Shown piece by piece: positions 5,419-64,000 of a DNA stretch of 64,000 nt. Position 1 is the first letter of the stretch. Each line of letters begins with the position of its first letter. Source of the stretch: Candidatus Omnitrophota bacterium (GTDB lineage: Bacteria; Omnitrophota; Gorgyraeia; Gorgyraeales; Gorgyraeaceae). Below the pieces are notes generated by a model. The model saw nothing but the letters and a program-made list of their open reading frames with translations. It was not told the DNA's origin and did no database searches. The translations under genes were made by a program, and so were the position numbers. The stretch is taken from contig JBDRBM010000042.1 of assembly GCA_043822665.1 (NCBI GenBank), positions 3,453 to 67,452 of the forward strand, given 5' to 3'.

Positions 5419-8187
5419 ATGTTTACTTGGATATTAAGCAAAATTATCGGATCGCAGAACGAGAGAGAGATCAGAAAACTTCGGCCCCTGGTAGATAAAA
5501 TAAATTCACTGGAGCCCGGAATAAAGAAGCTGAGCGATGACGAGCTGCGGCAAAAGACAGATGAATTTAGAAATCGCATTTCAGACGGCCAGACACTGGA
5601 TGATATTCTAATAGAGGCATTTGCAGTGGTGCGGGAGGCGGCCTGGCGTACGATAGGCATGCGGCATTTTGACGTGCAGCTAATAGGCGGTATTGTACTG
5701 CATCAAGGCAAGATCGCTGAAATGACAACAGGGGAAGGGAAAACTCTTGTCGCGACATTGGCTGCTTATCTTAACACGCTTAGCGGTAAGGGTGTCCATA
5801 TTGTAACGGTTAATGATTACCTGGCGCGAAGGGATAGAGATTGGATGGGGCCTGTCTTTGAATTCCTGGACCTTACAGTAGGTGCTATCCAGCATGATAT
5901 GGGCCCTGAATTGCGGCAGATGGCGTACCGTAGCGATATCACCTACGGCACAAATAATGAATTCGGTTTTGATTATCTACGGGATAATATGGTCGTAAGA
6001 AAAGAAGACATGGTCCAGCGGGAGTTGAATTACGCGATAGTTGACGAGGTAGATAGCATTCTTATTGACGAGGCCCGGACCCCGCTTATTATTTCGGGCC
6101 CCTCGGAAGAGTCCACCGAGAAGTATTATATATGCAATAAGATAGTGCCGCGGTTAAAAGGCAGGAAGATTTTGGAAAAAGATGAGATAGACGCGAAATT
6201 CAAAGGGATTGATCTTTCAAAGGGCTATGACTATATTGTTGACGAAAAGGCTCATACAGCTCATTTAACAGAAGATGGCGAGATAAAGGTAGCAGAAATG
6301 CTTGGCATTGACAATATGCATGATATAGACACCATGGAGTACAGGCATCATGTTAATCAGGCAATTAAGGCGCATGAATTATTTGAAAAAGACGTGAAAT
6401 ATGTGGTAAAAGACGGCGAGGTAATTATTGTGGATGAATTTACAGGCCGCCTGATGCCTGGCCGGAGGTGGTCAGACGGGCTTCATCAGGCAATCGAGGC
6501 AAGAGAGGGCCTTAAGATCGCGAGAGAAAACCAGACACTCGCCACTATTACTTTTCAGAATTATTTCAAGATGTACAAGAAACTTTCCGGTATGACAGGG
6601 ACAGCCATGACAGAGGCTCAGGAATTCAGCCATATTTATAAATTGGATACTATAGCAATACCCACCAATAAACCGCTCATAAGGACAAACTACCCCGACA
6701 TAATCTATAAGACCGAAAAGGAAAAATTCAATGCCGTCTGCAATGAAATTGAGGAATTGCATAAAAAGGGACGGCCTGCTCTTGTGGGGACAATTTCAAT
6801 AGAAAAATCAGAACGCATCAGCTCTTTTTTGAACCGCCGCGGCATTCCGCATAATGTATTAAACGCAAAATACCACGAGATGGAAGCGGTTATTATTTCG
6901 CAGGCTGGCAGGCTGAATGCCGTGACCATAGCGACAAATATGGCCGGCAGGGGCACAGATATATTGCTTGGCGGGAATCCAGAAGCCATGGTTAATAACT
7001 GGTTGAAGGCAAAGGGCCTGGGGCCTAAAAATGTTACTAAGGAAGAATCTGAAAAATTTCTCACTGAGGCCAGGGAAAAGGTAAGAGAGGAACATGAAAA
7101 GGTTGTTGAACTTGGCGGCCTTCATGTTATAGGCACGGAGCGGCACGAATCCAGGCGCATAGACAATCAGCTGCGCGGACGTCAAGGCAGACAGGGTGAT
7201 CCAGGGTCTTCCAGATTTTACATATCGCTTGAAGATGACCTGATGCGCTTATTTGGCTCTGGCAGGATTTCAGCCATTTATGATAAGCTCGGCATAGACG
7301 AAGGCCAGGATATCCAGCACCCTCTCATAACGAAGGCTATAGAAGTCGCGCAGAAAAGAGTGGAACAGCATAATTTTGACATACGAAAACATGTCCTGGA
7401 ATATGACAATGTGATGAATAAGCAAAGGGAAGTTATATACGAAGAGAGAAAAAAGATTTTGTTTGGCGGAGATATAAAAGGGCATATCTATGAAATAGTG
7501 GAGGAGATCATAGACAGCGCAATAGGTTTATACTTGAACCCTGACCAGCATAAATCAGATTGGAGATGCACTGATTTTATCGAGTGGTTCTGGTCAAAGT
7601 TCAATATAAGACTCCGTAATCTTGAGGACATGGTAGAAGGGAAAGACAGGGACGGTATCCTTGATGAACTGGTGGGTATAGCAAAGACGGCTTATGAGGA
7701 AAAAGAAAGAAATATGGGGCCAGATCACGTAAGGCATATAGAAAAAATGGTCATGCTTCAGGTGATTGACACAAAATGGAAGGATCATCTGTATGCCATG
7801 GATAATCTGAGAGAAGGCATTGGTCTAAGGGCATATGGTCAGCGCGATCCATTAGTAGAATACCAGCACGAAGGTTATGACATGTTCACGGCAATGATAG
7901 ACTCTATAAAAGATGAAACAATAGAGTTTTTATTCAAGATCCAGGCTGTCTCTAAAGAAGATAAGCCTCGCGGAGTATTTCAGTCTCTGCCAAAAAAATT
8001 CGTACATAGCGAGGCCGCGCCTATGTCGAGAATACCAACCCCTTCTGAAGGGCAGGGCGGGATAGAAGATGGTCTGCCGCAGTTAAATGAACCTCAGCCC
8101 CAGAGGCGCGAATCCCCAAAGGTCGGCCGCAATGACCCATGCCCCTGCGGCAGTGGAAAAAAATACAAGAAGTGCTGTGGGAAATAA
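5419..8187 (+). CDS. secA: preprotein translocase ATPase SecA
   Basis: It has Walker [10 protein letters not shown], the DEVD box [21 protein letters not shown] and the C-terminal zinc motif [14 protein letters not shown]. Confidence 0.97.
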
Positions 8188-8235: not shown

Positions 8236-9636
8236 ATGCCCCTTGCGATATTTTCAGCAATACTATTAATTCTTGCCTTCCCGAGTTTTAGTCTCAACTA
8301 TCTTGCCTTTATTGGCTTTGTCCCGCTTTTTTTTGCCGTCCAAAATAAGCCGCCAAAAAAGGCCTTTCTGATTTCATATGTTTGCGGATTTTTATTTTAT
8401 CTCGGGGTCTTATACTGGCTTTACCACGTGACTGTGATTGGTTTAATTGTGCTGTGCCTCTACCTGGCGTTATATTTTGGAATATTAGGCCTTATTTTTT
8501 CATTGCGCGCCATACGCTATTTGCTATACGTTGTTCCTATTGCCTGGGTATTCCTAGAGTATATACAATCTCATCTTTTTTCAGGTTTTGGATGGGCTTT
8601 AATGGGTTACTCACAATATAAAAATTTACCATTGATCCAGATAGCAGATTTATCAAAGGTATATGGCGTGTCTTTTTTTGTGATGATGGTAAATGTAATA
8701 GCCTGGAAGATAGTGAAGTCTATCGTGGAGTACAGAAAAAAAACCCTATTTTCAATTTTTGGCCATCTGTTATTTATGGTATTAATTTTTACACTTGTCT
8801 ACGCATACGGCTTTTTTAGACTTAGCGAAAAAGAGACGAAAACGAGCAGAATAAAGGTTTCAGTTGTTCAGGGCAATATTTCGCAGGAGGAAAAATGGGA
8901 TATTGACAACAGAGACGCTATATTGAATAAATACATCAGGCTTACAAGAGAGGCCGCAGGAGACGCGCCTGATTTAATAATATGGCCTGAGACCGCATTT
9001 CCAGGGTTTCTTTTTGCTGATGAGGGATTGACAGGCGATGTTATACGCCTGACAAAAGATACAAAGATACCGCTTTTATTAGGAGCAAATACTGAAAAAG
9101 GCGTGGAGAGTTTTAATAGCGCTGTATTGTTTTCCCCGGAAAATAATACCGTGACCCAATATGACAAAACGCATCTCGTGCCTTTTGGGGAATATGTGCC
9201 TTTTTCAGAAAAGGTTTATTTTTTGCATAATTTGGTCCTTGGCGAGCTGGGCGAATTTACACGGGGGAGAGAACTTAAAATTTTCACACTTCATCCTTCA
9301 TCTCTTATTAGAGAATGTAAATTTGGCACTTTGATCTGCTTCGAAGATATATTTCCTGAACTGTCTATGAAATTTGTCCAAAAAGGCGCAGAATTTTTAG
9401 TTGTGATTACCAATGATGCCTGGTACGGCAGGAGCGGCGCGCCATACCAGCATGCGGCCTGTTCAGTCTTCAGGGCCGTTGAAAACCGCGTACCTGTTGT
9501 GAGATGCGCTAACACCGGTTACTCATGCTTTATAGACTCTTACGGAAGGATATACGATTCTGTAAAGGAAAATAATTCCCACCTGTTTATTGCCGGCTAC
9601 AAGACTTCCAATGTCAGCATTAAGATTAAACCCTGA
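8236..9636 (+). CDS. lnt: apolipoprotein N-acyltransferase
   Basis: A multi-TM N-terminal half is followed by a CN-hydrolase half with the catalytic Cys context GTLICFEDIFPE and NDAWYG. Confidence 0.85.
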   Translation: MPLAIFSAILLILAFPSFSLNYLAFIGFVPLFFAVQNKPPKKAFLISYVCGFLFYLGVLYWLYHVTVIGLIVLCLYLALYFGILGLIFSLRAIRYLLYVVPIAWVFLEYIQSHLFSGFGWALMGYSQYKNLPLIQIADLSKVYGVSFFVMMVNVIAWKIVKSIVEYRKKTLFSIFGHLLFMVLIFTLVYAYGFFRLSEKETKTSRIKVSVVQGNISQEEKWDIDNRDAILNKYIRLTREAAGDAPDLIIWPETAFPGFLFADEGLTGDVIRLTKDTKIPLLLGANTEKGVESFNSAVLFSPENNTVTQYDKTHLVPFGEYVPFSEKVYFLHNLVLGELGEFTRGRELKIFTLHPSSLIRECKFGTLICFEDIFPELSMKFVQKGAEFLVVITNDAWYGRSGAPYQHAACSVFRAVENRVPVVRCANTGYSCFIDSYGRIYDSVKENNSHLFIAGYKTSNVSIKIKP

Positions 9637-58807: not shown

Positions 58808-59406
58808 TGCAGCTTGTCGTCGCTACCAGGAACCAGGATAAATTAAGAGAGATAAAGACGCTGCTGAAAGGCATGTCTTTAAAAATAGTGTCACTTAATA
58901 ATTTTAAAGACGCCCCTAAAGTTATTGAAAATGGAAAAACCCTGAAAACAAACGCGAAAAAAAAGGCAGTCCAGATATCCAGGTTTTTAAAAACGCTTGC
59001 AGTCGCTGATGATTCCGGGCTAGAGATAAAAACGCTCGAAGGCAGGCCAGGCGTATACTCAGCCCGTTTTTCAGGAAAAGGCGCCACATACGCGAGTAAT
59101 AATGAAAAGGTGCTGAAGCTTTTATATGGCATGCCTATAAATAGGCGCCGAGCCATGTTCAGGTGCGTTATAGCAGTAGCAGATAAAGGAAAGATGGTTG
59201 GGGCAGCAGAAGGGAGATGTAAGGGCAGCATAGGTTTTAAGCCCATGGGCAGGGTAGGATTTGGATATGACCCCATATTTATACCTGATGGATACAAAAA
59301 GACCTTTGCTCAACTGGGTATAAAGAGAAAAAACAGTATAAGCCACAGGAGCAAGGCATTAATCAAGGCCAAAAATATAATAAAAAGATACATTTTGACT
59401 TCTTAG
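58807..59406 (+). CDS. rdgB: dITP/XTP pyrophosphatase (RdgB/HAM1 family)
   Basis: VVATRNQDKLREI, DDSGLE, FGYDPIF and SHRSKAL motifs are present. The start overlaps the rph stop. Confidence 0.9.
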   Translation: MQLVVATRNQDKLREIKTLLKGMSLKIVSLNNFKDAPKVIENGKTLKTNAKKKAVQISRFLKTLAVADDSGLEIKTLEGRPGVYSARFSGKGATYASNNEKVLKLLYGMPINRRRAMFRCVIAVADKGKMVGAAEGRCKGSIGFKPMGRVGFGYDPIFIPDGYKKTFAQLGIKRKNSISHRSKALIKAKNIIKRYILTS

Positions 59407-59451
59407 GGCTATATTGATAAAATTATAAGGCACTATTTATTGAATTTGGTA

Positions 59452-59529
59452 CGGGGCGTGGCTCAGTTTGGCTAGAGCACTTGCTTTGGGAGCAAGGGGT
59501 CGCTGGTTCAAGTCCAGCCGCCCCGACCA
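59452..59529 (+). tRNA. tRNA-Pro (anticodon UGG), CCA encoded
   Basis: Hand-folded cloverleaf CGGGGCG-TG-GCTC-AGTTTGGCTA-GAGC-A-CTTGC-TTTGGGA-GCAAG-GGGTC-GCTGG-TTCAAGT-CCAGC-CGCCCCG-A-CCA. Confidence 0.93.
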
Positions 59530-59622
59530 ACTTGGTTAAAAGTTTAAGGTTGAAAGTTTAAAGGTTTTGTTTTGATTTATGAGAACTTTAAACCTTGAAC
59601 TTTAAACTTTTAAACTAAAAAC

Positions 59623-59699
59623 GTCCCTATAGCTCAGATGGATAGAGCATCTGCCTTCTAAGCAGAAAGTCGGCTGTTCAAACCAGCCTAGGGACGCCA
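59623..59699 (+). tRNA. tRNA-Arg (anticodon UCU), CCA encoded
   Basis: Hand-folded cloverleaf GTCCCTA-TA-GCTC-AGATGGATA-GAGC-A-TCTGC-CTTCTAA-GCAGA-AAGTC-GGCTG-TTCAAAC-CAGCC-TAGGGAC-G-CCA. Confidence 0.93.
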
Positions 59700-59709
59700 C
59701 TATTTTAGT

Positions 59710-60651
59710 ATGATACGGAACTTTTTTAAAAGAAGCGCGTTTATTATTATTATATTCTGTATATCCGGGCTTATCTTCCTGGGTTACAGGTCCCTTATCG
59801 GAAATATAAAGTCGCGGCTTTTAGAATTATCAAAAAAGGCTTTTAACTCTGACATCTCGGTAGGTCAGGCGCGTCTGAGATTTCCTGTATGTCTGGAATT
59901 AAAGGACATAAAGATAGATGACGCGATTAGTATTTCAAGCGTTCGCATCTATCCCAGCCCAACCTCTTTTTTTATAAAAAATAAGCTGATAATCTCGAAA
60001 ATCAGCGTAACTGACCCCTTTATCAGCATAAAAAAAGAGGATGCCAAAAAATGGGGAACGCCTGAATTTTTATCCGTAAACAAAGAGCGCGTAAAACAAG
60101 GCCCTTTAGTGCCTGATTTCCTGCTTTCAAAGATATACATACATAACGGCGTGGTTTCGTATGATAAAGGCGGTAATAGCGAACTTGAGTTTGTTGATAT
60201 TAACGGGGAAATCGAAACCCCAGGCCTTTATTCCTCGAAAGACAGGGTCTTTGATTTCTTTTTATTGGGATTTCTAAAAAACAGGGAAACTGATTTTCTG
60301 TCACCCTTGAAGTTAAGCGGCCGAGCCGGGCCAGACAGCATGATAAAAGCCAACCTGCGGATAGATGATATAAAAATAAAGACGCTCGGCATGGTGCATG
60401 ACAAATATCTTAGTCGCGTAATGAGAGAAGGCCGGCTTGACCTCAATAGCGTCATAGAGTTGTCGGAATCCAATCTTCTGGCGAGGTGTTTACTGGAAGC
60501 CGAGGACGTAGTCCTGAAAAATGATAGCGACAGGAAAACAGAACCTCCTTTCCTGGCAAGTTTTATTTTATTATTTAATTTCAAGAATAAACTGGTCAAG
60601 CTGAAAAGTATTCAGGGTAATTTATTTAAGCTTATATTGAACCGTTCTTAA
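59710..60651 (+). CDS. hypothetical membrane-anchored protein (313 aa), possibly AsmA/DUF748-like
   Basis: An N-terminal anchor (RSAFIIIIFCISGLIFLGY) is followed by a beta-rich body. The similarity to AsmA-like N-termini is only an impression. Confidence 0.45.
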   Translation: MIRNFFKRSAFIIIIFCISGLIFLGYRSLIGNIKSRLLELSKKAFNSDISVGQARLRFPVCLELKDIKIDDAISISSVRIYPSPTSFFIKNKLIISKISVTDPFISIKKEDAKKWGTPEFLSVNKERVKQGPLVPDFLLSKIYIHNGVVSYDKGGNSELEFVDINGEIETPGLYSSKDRVFDFFLLGFLKNRETDFLSPLKLSGRAGPDSMIKANLRIDDIKIKTLGMVHDKYLSRVMREGRLDLNSVIELSESNLLARCLLEAEDVVLKNDSDRKTEPPFLASFILLFNFKNKLVKLKSIQGNLFKLILNRS

Positions 60652-60659
60652 TATTTCAC

Positions 60660-60700
60660 GGTGGATGTAGCTCAGTCTGGATAGAGCACTAGATTGTGAA
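60660..60700 (+). pseudogene. 5' fragment of a canonical tRNA-His(GUG) gene (positions -1 to 38)
   Basis: G(-1)-GTGGATG-TA-GCTC-AGTCTGGATA-GAGC-A-CTAGA-TTGTGAA. The expected TCTAG 3' anticodon-stem strand is then replaced by CCAACTCATCG. Confidence 0.8.
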
Positions 60701-60782
60701 CCAACTCATCGATTTGACAGAAATTTAGAATGGCTTTGCGGAGATTGTCATTGCATTGTCCATATAATTTAATTGGTTTTAC

Positions 60783-60857
60783 GGTAGCTATAGTGTAATG
60801 GCAGCACGAGAGATTGTGGATCTCTTAGAGCGGGTTCAAATCCCGTTAGCTACCCCA
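60783..60857 (+). tRNA. tRNA-His (anticodon GUG), intact, divergent type, with encoded G-1, C73 and CCA
   Basis: G(-1)-GTAGCTA-TA-GTGT-AATGGCA-GCAC-G-AGAGA-TTGTGGA-TCTCT-TAGA-GCGGG-TTCAAAT-CCCGT-TAGCTAC-C-CCA. A TATAAT box lies at 60763-60768. Confidence 0.88.
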
Positions 60858-60970
60858 TCCGCTTTCGTGTATAGGGCGAATCAGAGAAGATAGCCTTCGG
60901 CGGATGGTCCGCCGTACGCTAACTTCTTTGTTACGGTCCAATACAGGGAGGCGGGCCAGTATCTTTAGTC

Positions 60971-61216
60971 ATGCATTATGTTTATATATTGAGAAGCAGG
61001 AAATATCCAAGCAGGTTCTATATAGGTTCGACGACAAATCTCGAAAAACGCTTAAAAGACCATTCCAACTCTCCAAAAGACAGTTATACACATAGATATT
61101 CTCCTTGGGATTTAGAGACGTATATTGTATTCAAAGGTAAATTTTCAGCGCAACGTTTCGAATCTTACCTTAAAACCAGCTCCGGAAGGACCTTCATAAA
61201 AAGGCACTTGATATAG
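60971..61216 (+). CDS. stand-alone GIY-YIG nuclease-family protein (81 aa, YhbQ/URI-domain type)
   Basis: The N-terminus is HYVYILRSRKYPSRFYIGSTTNLEKRLKDH (the GIY..YIG motifs), and the C-terminus is AQRFESYLKTSSGRTFIKRHL, typical of the short family. Confidence 0.8.
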   Translation: MHYVYILRSRKYPSRFYIGSTTNLEKRLKDHSNSPKDSYTHRYSPWDLETYIVFKGKFSAQRFESYLKTSSGRTFIKRHLI

Positions 61217-61217
61217 C

Positions 61218-61246
61218 CGCAATTCCTATCTAAATCGATCCTATTA
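61218..61246 (+). repeat. direct repeat DR1 bounding the accessory cassette
   Basis: CGCAATTCCTATCTAAATCGATCCTATTA is identical at 28 of 29 positions to 62633-62661. Confidence 0.9.
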
Positions 61247-61269
61247 AATGAGTCTTATTAAATGGATAA

Positions 61270-61371
61270 TTACCAAACATTATAGCCATTTTTGACATAT
61301 TCGCTTGGTAATTAAGGCTTGACAATTGTTACCAAACATGGCATACTATTCTTAGATATTTGTTTGGTAAC
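61270..61371 (+). promoter_or_regulatory. promoter with four TTACCAA(ACA) operator half-sites
   Basis: TTGACA (61319-61324), 17 nt, then CATACT (61342-61347). GTTACCAAACA at 61328-61338 is the exact inverse of TGTTTGGTAAC at 61361-61371. A second pair lies at 61270-61279 and 61305-61311. Confidence 0.6.
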
Positions 61372-61386
61372 AATGCGAGGTTTGAT

Positions 61387-61704
61387 ATGGGTGTAATAAA
61401 GGATCTATTAAGAGAAGAGCTTGAGAATTCCAAAAGATTAAGAGTAGATTATAAAGAAGAACTTAAAAAACATCGGGGCGGTAGCATTGTAGTAAAGGAA
61501 ATAAGAGGGCATAACTACTATTATTTAGCCTATAGGGATGCTAAGAAGGTAAGGTTTATTTATAAGGGCAAAAGGATATCCAAAGATGATATTGAAAAGC
61601 TGAAAGAACTAAGGCGGCTTAGAGCCAAATATAAGAAATTGATCCAAAAATTAGACAAACGAATTAAATATTTAAAGAAGGCATTGCATGGAAAAGAAGA
61701 TTAA
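61387..61704 (+). CDS. hypothetical small coiled-coil protein (105 aa), putative antitoxin/regulator partner
   Basis: ATG 61387 is preceded by GAGG. The central beta-like segment GGSIVVKEIRGHNYYYLAYRDAKKVRFIYKGK is followed by a Lys/Arg-rich helix. It overlaps the next gene by 17 nt. Confidence 0.5.
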   Translation: MGVIKDLLREELENSKRLRVDYKEELKKHRGGSIVVKEIRGHNYYYLAYRDAKKVRFIYKGKRISKDDIEKLKELRRLRAKYKKLIQKLDKRIKYLKKALHGKED

Positions 61705-62371
61705 TAGCTTATGCTTAGAGGTCTTAAATAGACTCGATAAGGCAGGTGTACTAAAAGACCTTATCGTAATAGGCAGTTGGAGTATCTATTTTTATAAATA
61801 TTATTTTAAATCCAAGGGTTACTCTACTTTTATCCGAACTAAGGATATTGATTTTTTAGTTCCAATCCCTCCGAAATTTAAAAAAGAAGTAGATGTTTTC
61901 AATCTCGTCAAGGATCTGGGTTTTCTTGAAAAATACAGAGGTTCGAAAGGGTATATAAAATTGGAGCATCCGGATCTTTCTATAGAATTTCTTGTTCCGG
62001 AAAGAGGCCGCGGCGAGGATAAGCCTTATTCGATACCACAGTTGTCGATTAATGCACAACCGTTGAGATTTTTAGATTTTCTTATTGAGAATACGATTTC
62101 TATAAATACCGAGGGGTTACATATAAAACTTCCGCATCCAGCAGCATATGCATTGCATAAATTTATTATTTTTAAACGCAGGAGCAAAAAGGATAAGCAC
62201 GATAGGGATATAGAAGGGGCATTAAGGGTATTTAATGAGTTAATCCGTCACAAGAAGCACAGCGAAATAAGGTATATCTTTAAAAGAATGCACAAAAAAT
62301 GGCAGAAAAAGATATTGGATAATCTTAAATCCATAGAAGAACCGGAAATAGCTAAAATTTTGATAGAATAG
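61688..62371 (+). CDS. nucleotidyltransferase-fold protein (227 aa), AbiEii/MenT-like putative toxin
   Basis: A minimal pol-beta NTase signature is present (VIGSWS...TKDIDFLVP), plus a later K/R..D..D helix (HKFIIFKRRSKKDKHDRDIEGA). The family assignment is by pattern only. Confidence 0.45.
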   Translation: MEKKINSLCLEVLNRLDKAGVLKDLIVIGSWSIYFYKYYFKSKGYSTFIRTKDIDFLVPIPPKFKKEVDVFNLVKDLGFLEKYRGSKGYIKLEHPDLSIEFLVPERGRGEDKPYSIPQLSINAQPLRFLDFLIENTISINTEGLHIKLPHPAAYALHKFIIFKRRSKKDKHDRDIEGALRVFNELIRHKKHSEIRYIFKRMHKKWQKKILDNLKSIEEPEIAKILIE

Positions 62372-62430
62372 AGTAACGGATTAAGTATAATTAAGTTTAA
62401 AGCGCTAAAAGGAAGAGGGGTTAAGTTTAT

Positions 62431-62455
62431 GGTTCAAATCCCGTCATCCACCCCA
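62431..62455 (+). pseudogene. 3' fragment of the canonical tRNA-His gene (T loop to CCA)
   Basis: GG-TTCAAAT-CCCGT-CATCCAC-C-CCA. CATCCAC is the exact complement of the GTGGATG acceptor strand at 60661-60667. Confidence 0.8.
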
Positions 62456-62632
62456 AATTTCCTATCTATAACAGATAGGAAATTTGGTCCTGAGCGACCG
62501 AAGGGAGTCGAAGGGCCAGATTCCTATCTGTCGATGTTTCAAAGAGTTAGGGCGTTGGTTTTGTCGTTTCTTTTCAATGTGTTGTGAGCCATTTCCTACC
62601 CAGATCTATCTCCCCAATAATAGCCAAAAAGT

Positions 62633-62661
62633 CGCAGTTCCTATCTAAATCGATCCTATTA
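62633..62661 (+). repeat. direct repeat DR2 bounding the accessory cassette
   Basis: CGCAGTTCCTATCTAAATCGATCCTATTA matches DR1 at 28 of 29 positions. It is followed by a tandem ACTTGACGAT x2. Confidence 0.9.
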
Positions 62662-62685
62662 CTTGACGATACTTGACGATTATGT

Positions 62686-62713
62686 TTGACAAAGCCTAAG
62701 AAAGGGGTATAAT
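62686..62713 (+). promoter_or_regulatory. near-consensus sigma70-type promoter
   Basis: TTGACA (62686-62691), a 16-nt spacer, then TATAAT (62708-62713). Confidence 0.65.
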
Positions 62714-62751
62714 AAAAATATTATCGCTATATAAAAGATTAGAAAATCTTG

Positions 62752-62789
62752 AACCGCTAGGGAAGATGGCTAACCTTTGCGGTTTTTTT
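62752..62789 (+). terminator. intrinsic terminator about 40-80 nt downstream of the promoter
   Basis: AACCGC-T-AGGG...CCTT-T-GCGGTT stem followed by a T7 run (62783-62789). Confidence 0.6.
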
Positions 62790-63024
62790 ATGCTTCGACA
62801 GAGCTCAGCATAAACCCTGAGCAAGCAGAATGCGCCAAAGGGTTTATTTAATATTTTTGAACATAAGGAGGGGTTATCAAAAAGATAAGGATTTCATCCA
62901 AGGGAAGGAAATGCAAATCTCCGAACTGCAGGCAGATCTTGAGTATATATAATCATGGGTCCTTTTGTTTTGTTCATTTGAGGCAGCCTGATTACAGCCT
63001 GAACCCCAAGGGAGATAAAGTGTT

Positions 63025-64000
63025 ATGTTAGAAAAAGTAAACAACGCGGATAATTTTAATCATGGGACTGACCAGTCTAGCCAGGGTTTTTACGGGTTGG
63101 GCATAGCGCCAAAGATTCTTGATATACTTGAACGCATAAAATTCAAGGTACCCACTCCTATTCAGATAAAGGCTGTTCCTCTGGGTATCCAGGGTAAGGA
63201 TATTATAGGCATTGCTCAGACAGGAACAGGAAAAACCCATTCTTTCGTGATTCCCATGATTCAACGTTTAGCACAGAAAAAAGGCACGGGCCTGGTCCTT
63301 GCTCCTACACGGGAATTAGCCATTCAGATTGACGAGGCTTTTCAGGCAATTGCGCGGCCGTTCGGGATACGGACAGCCTGTCTTATCGGAGGCGCTCCTA
63401 TGCAGCCTCAGTTGCAGGCGCTTCGTAAATCCCCTAGGGTAGTAGTAGCGACTCCCGGAAGGCTTATTGACCATATGAAGAGATGGAATGTTATAGTGGA
63501 AGAAGTGATAATGCTGGTTCTTGATGAGGCTGACCGCATGCTAGATATGGGATTTCAGCCGCAGATAGAACAGATCCTGCGCTTATTGCCGAAAGAAAGA
63601 CAGACCATGCTTTTTTCCGCAACCATCCCAGACGAGATCATGCGGATAACATCCAGGTACATGAAGCTTCCTGTTTGTGTTGAGGTTGCGCCTTCAGGAA
63701 CCGCCGCGGAAAAAGTTACCCATGAATTATTTATCGTCAAGAAAGACGCCAAACTGCATCTTCTCAGAAAATTACTCGCGCAATATAAGGGCCCCATACT
63801 TTTATTTTCCCGTACAAAGCATAACGCGAAAAGGATTGTGAGGGAGATCAGAAATATGAAGCACGCCGCGGCAGAGATACATTCCAACCGTTCTCTTGGC
63901 CAGCGCCGCGAAGCGCTCGAAGGTTTTAAGTCCGGCAGATACAGGGTGCTTGTTGCTACGGATATAGCCTCCAGGGGCATCGATGTTAGCGGAATCGAGC
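63025..64000 (+). CDS. DEAD-box ATP-dependent RNA helicase (3' end beyond the window)
   Basis: This ORF is not in the ORF track because it has no stop inside the window. My translation from ATG 63025 gives a Q motif (PTPIQ), AQTGTGKT, PTRELA, DEAD (VLDEADRML), SAT and VATDIASRGID. Confidence 0.9.
   Translation, partial: MLEKVNNADNFNHGTDQSSQGFYGLGIAPKILDILERIKFKVPTPIQIKAVPLGIQGKDIIGIAQTGTGKTHSFVIPMIQRLAQKKGTGLVLAPTRELAIQIDEAFQAIARPFGIRTACLIGGAPMQPQLQALRKSPRVVVATPGRLIDHMKRWNVIVEEVIMLVLDEADRMLDMGFQPQIEQILRLLPKERQTMLFSATIPDEIMRITSRYMKLPVCVEVAPSGTAAEKVTHELFIVKKDAKLHLLRKLLAQYKGPILLFSRTKHNAKRIVREIRNMKHAAAEIHSNRSLGQRREALEGFKSGRYRVLVATDIASRGIDVSGIE

Follow-up and report, generated by a model that had tools for sequence, protein, structure and literature searches.

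Homing endonucleases are known to persist in essential genes in three ways: they reside within self-splicing introns or inteins, they lie between genes, or, in rare cases, they divide a gene into pieces that still work. The free-standing homing endonuclease SegB of phage T4 resides in a tRNA cluster, recognises a motif of the tRNA T arm, and drags neighbouring tRNA genes along (PMC2330249), and mobE of the same phage is likewise free-standing and has neighbouring genes carried along with it (PMC2790892). Synthetic 'Cleave and Rescue' or home-and-rescue drives direct a nuclease against an essential gene and supply, in tight linkage, a form of that gene that cannot be cleaved (PMC6442612). Here we analyse a 64-kb part of a contig from a Candidatus Omnitrophota metagenome-assembled genome (hereafter, 'the window'), in which a tRNA-His gene has been split and a complete tRNA-His gene of another type, preceded by the remains of an HNH nuclease gene, lies between its two pieces. 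Comparison with related loci suggests that this is probably a decayed homing-endonuclease 'replace-and-rescue' cassette, one of a family of cassettes that comprise an HNH gene and a tRNA-His gene. The cassette appears to be a free-standing homing endonuclease that lives in an essential gene by carrying a spare copy, and it appears in this respect to use a fourth way of persisting: it breaks the essential gene and brings the spare.

The HNH-tRNA-His cassette resembles SegB and mobE in having a nuclease gene beside tRNA genes, a putative target within a tRNA gene, and no intron or intein, and, as judged by sequence only, in the co-inheritance of the nuclease and flanking tRNA genes at the expense of recipient markers. 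It differs from them in that the nuclease is an HNH enzyme with zinc ribbons, not a GIY-YIG enzyme; in that it resides in bacterial chromosomes, not phages; in that it sits inside its target gene, of which the 5′ half is left; and in that the co-transferred tRNA gene replaces the gene destroyed. The likeness to islands and prophages that target tRNA genes comprises the tRNA target, a tRNA piece as the far-end repeat, accessory cargo in between, and a host that keeps a working tRNA; unlike those elements, the locus described here has no recombinase, has a 5′ fragment left as well, has non-homologous junctions, and has its resident gene replaced by a complete gene of another type, not regenerated. 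The group I introns of bacterial tRNA anticodon loops share with it the anticodon-loop insertion, an HNH-type open reading frame (ORF), and an occurrence in the candidate phyla radiation (CPR, or Patescibacteria) (PMC13011429), but here there is no ribozyme and no 3′ exon, and it is a second complete gene, not splicing, that preserves host function; a 2026 survey of Patescibacteria tRNA introns reports no tRNA-His case (PMC13011429). The logic of Cleave and Rescue (PMC6442612) is the same, with the qualification that we only infer, here, the resistance of the carried tRNA and the lethality of the cut; unlike the synthetic drives, the cassette is natural, prokaryotic, and confined to a single locus. 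Mycobacterial HNH genes, which lie inside large acquired tRNA arrays, represent a different situation. The open-access full-text literature did not yield any description of a split-and-replaced tRNA-His gene associated with an HNH gene, and the cassette is apparently undescribed in searchable open-access papers.

We refer to the canonical tRNA-His as A-type and to the tRNA-His with a short D arm as B-type, and we refer to the 313-aa DUF748-like gene located just 5′ of the tRNA-His site of the window as ORF313; its protein is 100% identical to one of a Candidatus Omnitrophota metagenome-assembled genome. L-numbered sequences are contigs, in part from relatives fetched via ORF313 homologues; L021 was fetched via a metagenome scan with the exact B-type tRNA sequence, and 11 loci in species-representative genomes via the HNH protein of L021.

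Comparison of L013 and L021 reveals an empty and a filled allele of the same site. In L013 (ORF313 protein 54–57% identical to that of the window), the ORF313 homologue is followed by an intact A-type tRNA-His gene and then by a hairpin and a conserved spacer, whereas in L021 the ORF313 homologue is followed by an A-type 5′ half ending in GATTGTGAG, then by CCAACTCGTTAATTTGACA and its continuation, a −10 box, and an intact ORF for a 153-aa HNH protein, and the B-type tRNA gene begins 9–10 nt past this ORF. The two contigs align without gaps over 1042 nt at 93.95% identity, the alignment ending at the anticodon, and their ORF313 proteins are 94% identical. The HNH cassette is thus present in one and absent from the other of two near-identical genomes at one precise site. 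An earlier note on this DNA had proposed that inserted DNA destroyed the resident tRNA-His gene and supplies a full substitute, and had named an empty site in relatives as a check; L013, in which an A-type gene stands intact at that position behind ORF313, is such a site, and its comparison with the filled, 94% identical L021 upholds the proposal. In a tree of ORF313 proteins, L013 is sister to L021, and L012 and a group comprising the window and L001 fall outside this pair. Because L013 is nested with the filled L021, and because its intact A-type gene is not a reversion, there must have been at least two independent insertions at this site.

The remaining relatives fall into native and decayed forms. 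L004, L010, and L011 (ORF313 41–47% identical) have a native B-like tRNA. L012 (ORF313 60–63% identical) has 17 nt of the A-type 5′ end, a 5′-truncated HNH frame containing VVHHIDRNRKNNKPENLEWLCRNCH, and then the B-type tRNA gene. L001 and L002 (ORF313 67–73% identical) have the B-type tRNA gene right after ORF313, followed by 9 kb of cargo and then by ACCCCA and the same conserved downstream region. These loci form a decay series that runs from an intact nuclease gene in L021, through a truncated gene in L012 and a deleted gene in the window, to the B-type tRNA gene alone in L001.

The layout of L021 recurs widely. The cassette consists of a sigma-70 promoter, a 153-aa zinc-ribbon/HNH gene, and a complete tRNA-His gene that begins 7–13 nt past the HNH stop codon, and it starts just after the resident anticodon; the CCAAC with which it starts in the window is also present in L021 and L038. 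Species-representative genomes contain 11 HNH loci, nine labelled Omnitrophota or 'Planctomycetia', one Saccharibacteria, and one Paceibacterota, and in all 11 an intact tRNA-His(GTG) gene lies within tens of bases 3′ of the HNH gene (in L026 the contig stops inside the tRNA gene). The same layout is present in L038, L039–L046, and L047 (on a closed 1.99-Mb contig), and altogether an intact tRNA-His gene is located just 3′ of the HNH gene in 23 of 23 HNH loci examined besides L021, from Omnitrophota and CPR. On the other side of the HNH gene, a recognisable or decayed tRNA-His 5′ half is present in all 13 loci measured (L021 and 12 of those 23), and in 11 of these 13 exactly 50 nt separate the anticodon's end from the HNH start codon, a stretch that holds TTGACA-N17-TATAAT. 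Among Omnitrophota, the 5′ half is clean in L023, L024, L026, L027, and L028, decayed in L025, L029, and L030, and nearly gone in L022. In the Saccharibacteria locus, a tRNA-His 5′ half precedes two tandem HNH genes. Two tandem paralogous HNH genes of this family are located 5′ of the tRNA-His gene in two CPR genomes (L031, 1722–2695; L032, 5517–6504), and L031 still has a tRNA-His 5′ half ahead of the first of them.

The fragment and the linked intact tRNA gene differ in sequence. Specifically, the 5′ strand of the anticodon stem differs between them at three to five of six positions in 14 of 14 loci compared, and the 5′ halves differ in sequence type between hosts; in L028 the polarity is reversed, with a B-like 5′ half and a canonical intact tRNA. 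Within the intact tRNA the two halves pair with each other, and the 3′ half does not pair with the upstream fragment, indicating that the whole tRNA gene travels with the nuclease gene. A model in which the element carries only a new 5′ half was rejected as a full account, since it is the new 5′ half, not the old one, that fits the 3′ halves of the intact tRNAs. In the other HNH loci searched for a 3′ fragment, L024 and L030 among them, the intact tRNA gene directly adjoins the native downstream region.

The 153-aa protein encoded by L021 has CxxC zinc-ribbon repeats in its N-terminal part and an HNH domain in its C-terminal part. Intact relatives score above the profile cut-offs for PF13392 HNH_3 (28.4 bits; cut-off 24.8) and PF01844 (22.5 bits; cut-off 21.4), and the protein matches phrog_1271 (E=2.9e-17). 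Across the family, the catalytic residues and cysteines of the motif HH..D..N..NN..N..C..CH are invariant, the ratio of nonsynonymous to synonymous substitution rates (dN/dS) is ~0.07, and synonymous sites are saturated. At E<=1e-10 the homologues fall into at least 217 clusters, almost all of ~153 aa and annotated at most as 'HNH endonuclease'. An AlphaFold model (predicted local distance difference test, pLDDT, 84; predicted template modelling score, pTM, 0.44) gave only weak partial matches to the PDB, namely to the HNH domains of Cap5 and I-HmuI and to the zinc modules of YacG and DotN, and a profile search of the PDB with the protein likewise gave weak matches.

The window contains the following features, listed in order.

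60660–60700, + strand: 5′ piece of the resident A-type tRNA-His gene, from G-1 to position 38, now dead, directly after ORF313, where L013 has the intact A-type gene.
60701–60721, + strand: left end of the HNH cassette, starting CCAAC and including the −35 box TTGACA of the HNH promoter, of which the −10 box is deleted; aligns with L021 after the same junction.
60722–60772, + strand: last 16 codons and stop codon of the HNH gene (NLEWLCGDCHCIVHII, then stop), from translation and pairwise alignment with L021.
60783–60857, + strand: complete B-type tRNA-His(GTG) gene with G-1 and encoded CCA (ARAGORN, 60784–60857; Rfam, 63.4 bits).
60858–61212, + strand: GIY-YIG segment, with a gene at 60971–61216 (PF01541, E=1.5e-15), in place of the 175-nt spacer of L015.
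61213–62414, + strand: donor-derived block, recognised by identity to L015, with 'core' copy 1 (61215–61251), operator-like repeats (61270–61374), a 105-aa ORF, and an NTP_transf_8 gene.
62415–62430, + strand: 16-nt filler GAGGGGTTAAGTTTAT at the right junction, homologous to neither the donor nor the resident tRNA gene.
62431–62455, + strand: 3′ piece of the resident A-type tRNA-His gene, positions 52–76 (part of repeat D3), with an acceptor strand complementary to 60661–60667.
62456–62666, + strand: downstream region of the resident gene itself, with a hairpin (62453–62487; inverted repeat I9), the conserved spacer, and 'core' copy 2 (62630–62666; repeat D2).

The tRNA-His gene is torn in two, as the earlier note had described, and both pieces match the intact gene of L013. 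The 5′ piece reads G-1, GTGGATG, TA, a D arm GCTC-AGTCTGGATA-GAGC, A, CTAGA, and the loop TTGTGAA, where the tRNA sequence ends; it is 97% identical to the intact A-type tRNA-His of L013 over 35 nt and is unambiguous through the anticodon GTG, and a 32-nt pattern representing it occurs once in the window versus 0.00 times expected. The 3′ piece consists of GGTTCAAATCCCGT, CATCCAC, C, and CCA, and matches the 3′ end of L013 at 24 of 25 positions; its CATCCAC is the exact complement of the GTGGATG of the 5′ piece. The intact tRNA and the 3′ piece share the 14-mer GGTTCAAATCCCGT, of which the 64 kb contain exactly two copies versus 0.02 expected. No sequence for tRNA positions 39–51 of the A-type gene is present between the two pieces, a point made in the earlier note on which a sequence check and the comparison with L013 agree. 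The window copy is the only one that keeps both ends of the destroyed tRNA-His gene, though it is itself a dead relic. For annotators, tRNA 'fragments' beside small HNH genes are informative scars, not noise.

The window has the same layout as L021, apart from one clean 438-nt gap that has CAGAA microhomology at its edges. The deletion took the −10 box, the start codon, and ~137 codons of the HNH gene, and the segment that spans the HNH remnant and the B-type tRNA gene (60721–60857) is 90.5% identical to L021. The window copy is therefore a dead member of the HNH cassette family, with the L021 layout minus 438 nt. The earlier note had proposed no driver for the insertion; what separates the 5′ piece from the intact tRNA gene, 82 nt in all, is the remains of the HNH gene (the −35 box of its promoter and its last 16 codons). 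A reading of 60701–60722, drawn from L012, as an HNH 'HHID' motif with a 21-nt deletion was abandoned when the L021 alignment identified a promoter region and the 438-nt deletion.

The carried tRNA-His gene is intact. ARAGORN calls three tRNA genes in the window, for Pro, Arg(TCT), and His(GTG), with His at 60784–60857 only; the Rfam score of the His gene, 63.4 bits, is comparable to those of the neighbouring tRNAs, and the intact gene of the earlier note thus stands. It begins 10 nt past the HNH stop codon, as at other loci, and is identical at 75 of 75 positions to the tRNA-His of L001, L016, and L021, and also 100% identical to that of L015. Its D arm is short, as had been noted, but not non-canonical: the short D arm is the native form of tRNA-His in L004, L010, L011, and L015–L018. 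A and B types occupy the same locus in different lineages, and, since the B type is native in several of them, the seemingly divergent tRNA is a normal type in the phylum. The suggestion of addiction by an essential tRNA has some plausibility in spirit, given a dead resident gene and, within the 64 kb, no tRNA-His other than the carried one. It would hold at most for the carried tRNA and not for the island, since L001 keeps the B-type tRNA and has lost the rest.

To the right of the B-type tRNA gene, most of the insert is donor DNA. Specifically, 61213–62414 is 90.5% identical to L015 294–1494 over 1202 nt, and in L015 this sequence is natively downstream of a B-type tRNA-His gene. L015 has no HNH gene, and the order there is B-type tRNA, a 175-nt spacer with a hairpin, 'core', operator-like repeats, and a two-gene nucleotidyltransferase module. 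Background identity to the same lineage (L016) is 68–72% for the upstream housekeeping genes and 39% for the ORF313 protein. The flanking donor markers have thus been co-converted, with the tRNA identical at 75 of 75 positions and the adjoining 1.2 kb at 90.5% versus a background of 68–72%, indicating that the B-type tRNA gene and the module came recently from an L015-like genome. The 37-nt repeat D2 (61215–61251 and 62630–62666) comprises the donor 'core' and the recipient's own 'core'. The region 62456–62666 is homologous to DNA located 3′ of tRNA-His in L013 and L015 and, past the 9-kb cargo, in L001. The motif TTCCTATCT occurs four times in the tRNA-His downstream region and donor 'core' of the window (61222, 62458, 62520, and 62637), and similar motifs are present in L001, L013, and L015; it may be a protein-binding site.

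The module comprises a 105-aa ORF (61387–61704) that matched no family and, overlapping it by 17 nt, the NTP_transf_8 gene (61688–62371; PF12281, E=8.9e-26), and the inverted and direct repeats TTACCAAACA and TGTTTGGTAA surround a TTGACA promoter at 61270–61374. These repeats are kept in L015 and look like an autoregulatory operator. Judged by its small overlapping genes, nucleotidyltransferase fold, and operator-like promoter, the module is toxin–antitoxin-like; PADLOC gave no match for these genes. In place of the nucleotidyltransferase module of L015 and the window, L001 (12630–13172) has similar operator repeats, and after them come an unrelated 70-aa HNH gene (PF01844) and an apparent C-terminal nucleotidyltransferase remnant (...MPQKWQKEIL).

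The small GIY-YIG gene is not present in the otherwise collinear L015, and it is probably a second, independent selfish gene. A 90-aa GIY-YIG gene that is 40% identical to that at 60971–61216 is located in L003 (3200–3520) as a clean ~315-nt insertion between tRNA-Pro and tRNA-Arg and is absent from L001 (1735–1745), suggesting that small mobile nuclease genes of a second family are present around tRNA genes. The earlier note was right that a GIY-YIG gene (PF01541, E=1.5e-15) and a two-gene nucleotidyltransferase module (PF12281, E=8.9e-26) lie in the gap; comparison with L015 shows them to be a later insertion or neighbouring donor DNA instead of the core of a mobile element.

At the right junction, homology to the donor L015 ends at 62414, the 16-nt filler follows, and the resident gene then resumes at position 52 and continues into its own hairpin and spacer. 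The filler resembles the sequence 30 nt upstream of it, ATTAAGTTTAA at 62389–62399. No tRNA-His 3′ fragment was present in 13 other loci searched, and the 3′ piece of the window thus points to an unusual resolution, in which copying overshot into donor DNA and was followed by end-joining. The 3′ piece would then mark the place at which a join without homology linked the copied donor DNA to resident position 52.

We propose the following mechanism, which would conform to what is established for free-standing homing endonucleases such as T4 SegB. The HNH enzyme would cut intact tRNA-His genes within or close to the anticodon loop, and the break would be repaired by copying from cassette-bearing DNA, with the retained 5′ half serving as the left homology and the tRNA 3′ half or the downstream region serving as the right homology. 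The resident gene would thereby be destroyed, and the cell would live on the carried tRNA-His, which would be transcribed from the nuclease promoter, released by RNase P, and protected from cutting by its sequence differences. In the window, copying would have run ~1.6 kb into the neighbouring DNA of the donor and ended in a non-homologous join, with the 16-nt filler, at resident position 52, leaving the orphan 3′ piece; after fixation, the nuclease gene would have decayed and the small GIY-YIG gene would have replaced the spacer. The well-preserved 5′ halves may be merely recent, or may be kept as homology arms or operator sites. More tentatively, the family could constitute a natural 'cleave-and-rescue' drive, in which HNH nucleases destroy tRNA-His at the anticodon loop and spread by carrying a nuclease-immune tRNA-His; we regard this as possible, at somewhat short of even chances. 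Such a drive, if real, would repeatedly replace the alleles of an essential single-copy gene and would account for the alternation of two very different tRNA-His types between close relatives. If confirmed, the mechanism would provide a natural counterpart of engineered cleave-and-rescue drives, would explain the fast turnover of tRNA-His alleles and linked cargo (toxin–antitoxin modules) in uncultured phyla, and would yield a compact, 153-aa, sequence-specific nuclease with a defined genomic target.

Several observations weigh against this mechanism. We infer the target and cut site of the nuclease from the insertion site alone, and the anticodon loop of the carried tRNA is unbroken, with the anticodon-stem differences no more than a candidate basis of its putative immunity. 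Synonymous sites are saturated, and no very recent transfer is seen among the sampled cassettes; these may also have been vertically resident for long under selection. The account of the right junction is drawn from one assembly, as the 3′ piece is unique to the window. The promoter scan called no sigma-70 promoter upstream of the B-type tRNA gene in the window, and the TATAAT at 60763–60768, which the earlier note had assigned to the tRNA as its own box, falls within the last codons of the deleted HNH gene. Viral contigs contained only bare HNH-motif matches and no phage vector, plasmid collections not having been searched.

The same observations bear on the alternatives. Saturated synonymous divergence with dN/dS of ~0.07, the usual position of the Omnitrophota cassette at a syntenic tRNA-His locus near tRNA-Pro and tRNA-Arg, and the lack of a vector among viral contigs would be expected of long-term maintenance, that is, of an old, vertically inherited and possibly domesticated HNH-tRNA-His operon, with the window produced by ordinary recombination of diverged alleles after DNA uptake and without homing. 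We nevertheless consider such an operon unlikely: empty and filled alleles are present in genomes that are 94% identical, the junction is identical across two phyla, and the 5′ halves are well preserved and of host-specific types, whereas a neutral fossil of one old event would have decayed. Assembly error, in the form of reads from A-type and B-type strains joined at short shared repeats, has to be considered for a metagenome-assembled contig whose right junction is seen only here and which offers short repeats for mis-joining (the 14-nt T arm and the 24–37-nt 'core'). A chimera at the left junction is unlikely, as the A-type 5′ piece, HNH remnant, and B-type tRNA gene occur together in two independent assemblies of other samples, L012 and L021. 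At the right junction a mis-join is conceivable, but that junction falls 16 nt past the end of donor homology and on no shared repeat. For the locus as a whole we consider a chimera very improbable.

A classical integrase-type island in the T loop or 3′ end of tRNA-His would make 60833–60857 and 62431–62455 its attL and attR and would assign the 5′ piece to a separate event. It would account for D3, an imperfect direct repeat of 25 nt (of which 14 nt are exact, plus CCCCA). In relatives the 3′ end of tRNA-His is clearly a hotspot of integration, with the 9-kb cargo of L001 ending in ACCCCA and the native downstream region, other cargo in L017–L019, and a large serine recombinase element abutting the tRNA in L039. 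The 14-nt exact repeat and CCCCA could mark att sites but are also the T arm common to both tRNA types, and the acceptor strand in the distal repeat belongs to the broken A-type gene instead of to the tRNA supposedly regenerated. No tRNA was regenerated: the A-type gene lacks 39–51, and the intact tRNA is a different, self-consistent gene. In addition, 60701–62430 encodes no recombinase (its ORFs are GIY-YIG, the ORF with no family, and NTP_transf_8), its body is collinear with the native L015 chromosome and not with an element, and 16 nt of non-homologous filler lie immediately 5′ of the distal repeat. We therefore consider an integrase-type island unlikely, as the locus has no recombinase and its junctions do not appear att-like. 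Simple att-site models with a crossover in the T loop or the anticodon loop were also tried and were rejected, as the hybrid tRNAs that they predict are not observed. The position of the insertion in the anticodon loop, the intron-like insertions at U34 of the neighbouring tRNA-Arg(TCT) of relatives, and the known tRNA group I introns with HNH ORFs in CPR bacteria (PMC13011429) raise the further alternative of an intron, group I or other, that encodes a homing endonuclease and is spliced out of the tRNA-His anticodon loop. This fails for the window because exon sequence (positions 39–51 of the 3′ exon) is missing and a complete second tRNA gene is present; moreover, Rfam gave no intron family in 59000–64000 at E<=10 and, besides tRNA, no other RNA family in the gap, the break follows G36-A38 and not a U, and the HNH gene has its own promoter and is followed by that second gene. 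An intron is accordingly a reading to which we give almost no credence. The replace-and-rescue cassette is the reading that we prefer.

The replace-and-rescue locus lies among housekeeping and tRNA genes, with RNase PH, a Ham1/RdgB-family gene, tRNA-Pro, tRNA-Arg, and ORF313 upstream and a DEAD-box helicase gene that runs past the end of the window downstream. Between tRNA-Pro and tRNA-Arg, the spacer is taken up by an AT-rich inverted repeat (59536–59613) whose 28-nt arms consist of 14-nt tandem units. The tRNA-Arg(TCT) gene of the window (59623–59699) is uninterrupted. In relatives it is interrupted after U34 by ~270 nt (L001, 1809–2078; L003, 3564–3835; L021, at the contig start) or by an insertion of ~640 nt with a PD-(D/E)XK ORF (PF11645; L004, 9302–9947). 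The interruptions have the look of a group I intron; Rfam, however, matched no family for the insertions of L001. In L004, a direct repeat of ~90 nt (7230–7320 and 9128–9242; also in L005–L008), comprising 37 nt of upstream sequence and tRNA-Pro positions 1–52, flanks an AbiEii toxin–antitoxin cassette, and the resulting order of 5′ fragment, cargo, and intact tRNA-Pro is the tRNA-His layout without an HNH gene. A gene for a 544-aa large serine recombinase, with inverted repeats around it, abuts the 3′ end of the cassette tRNA-His in L039 (6543–8177), L043 (1438–3072), and L044 (719–2353), and L023, from 6549, has a similar end sequence; this is another element that uses the tRNA-His site.

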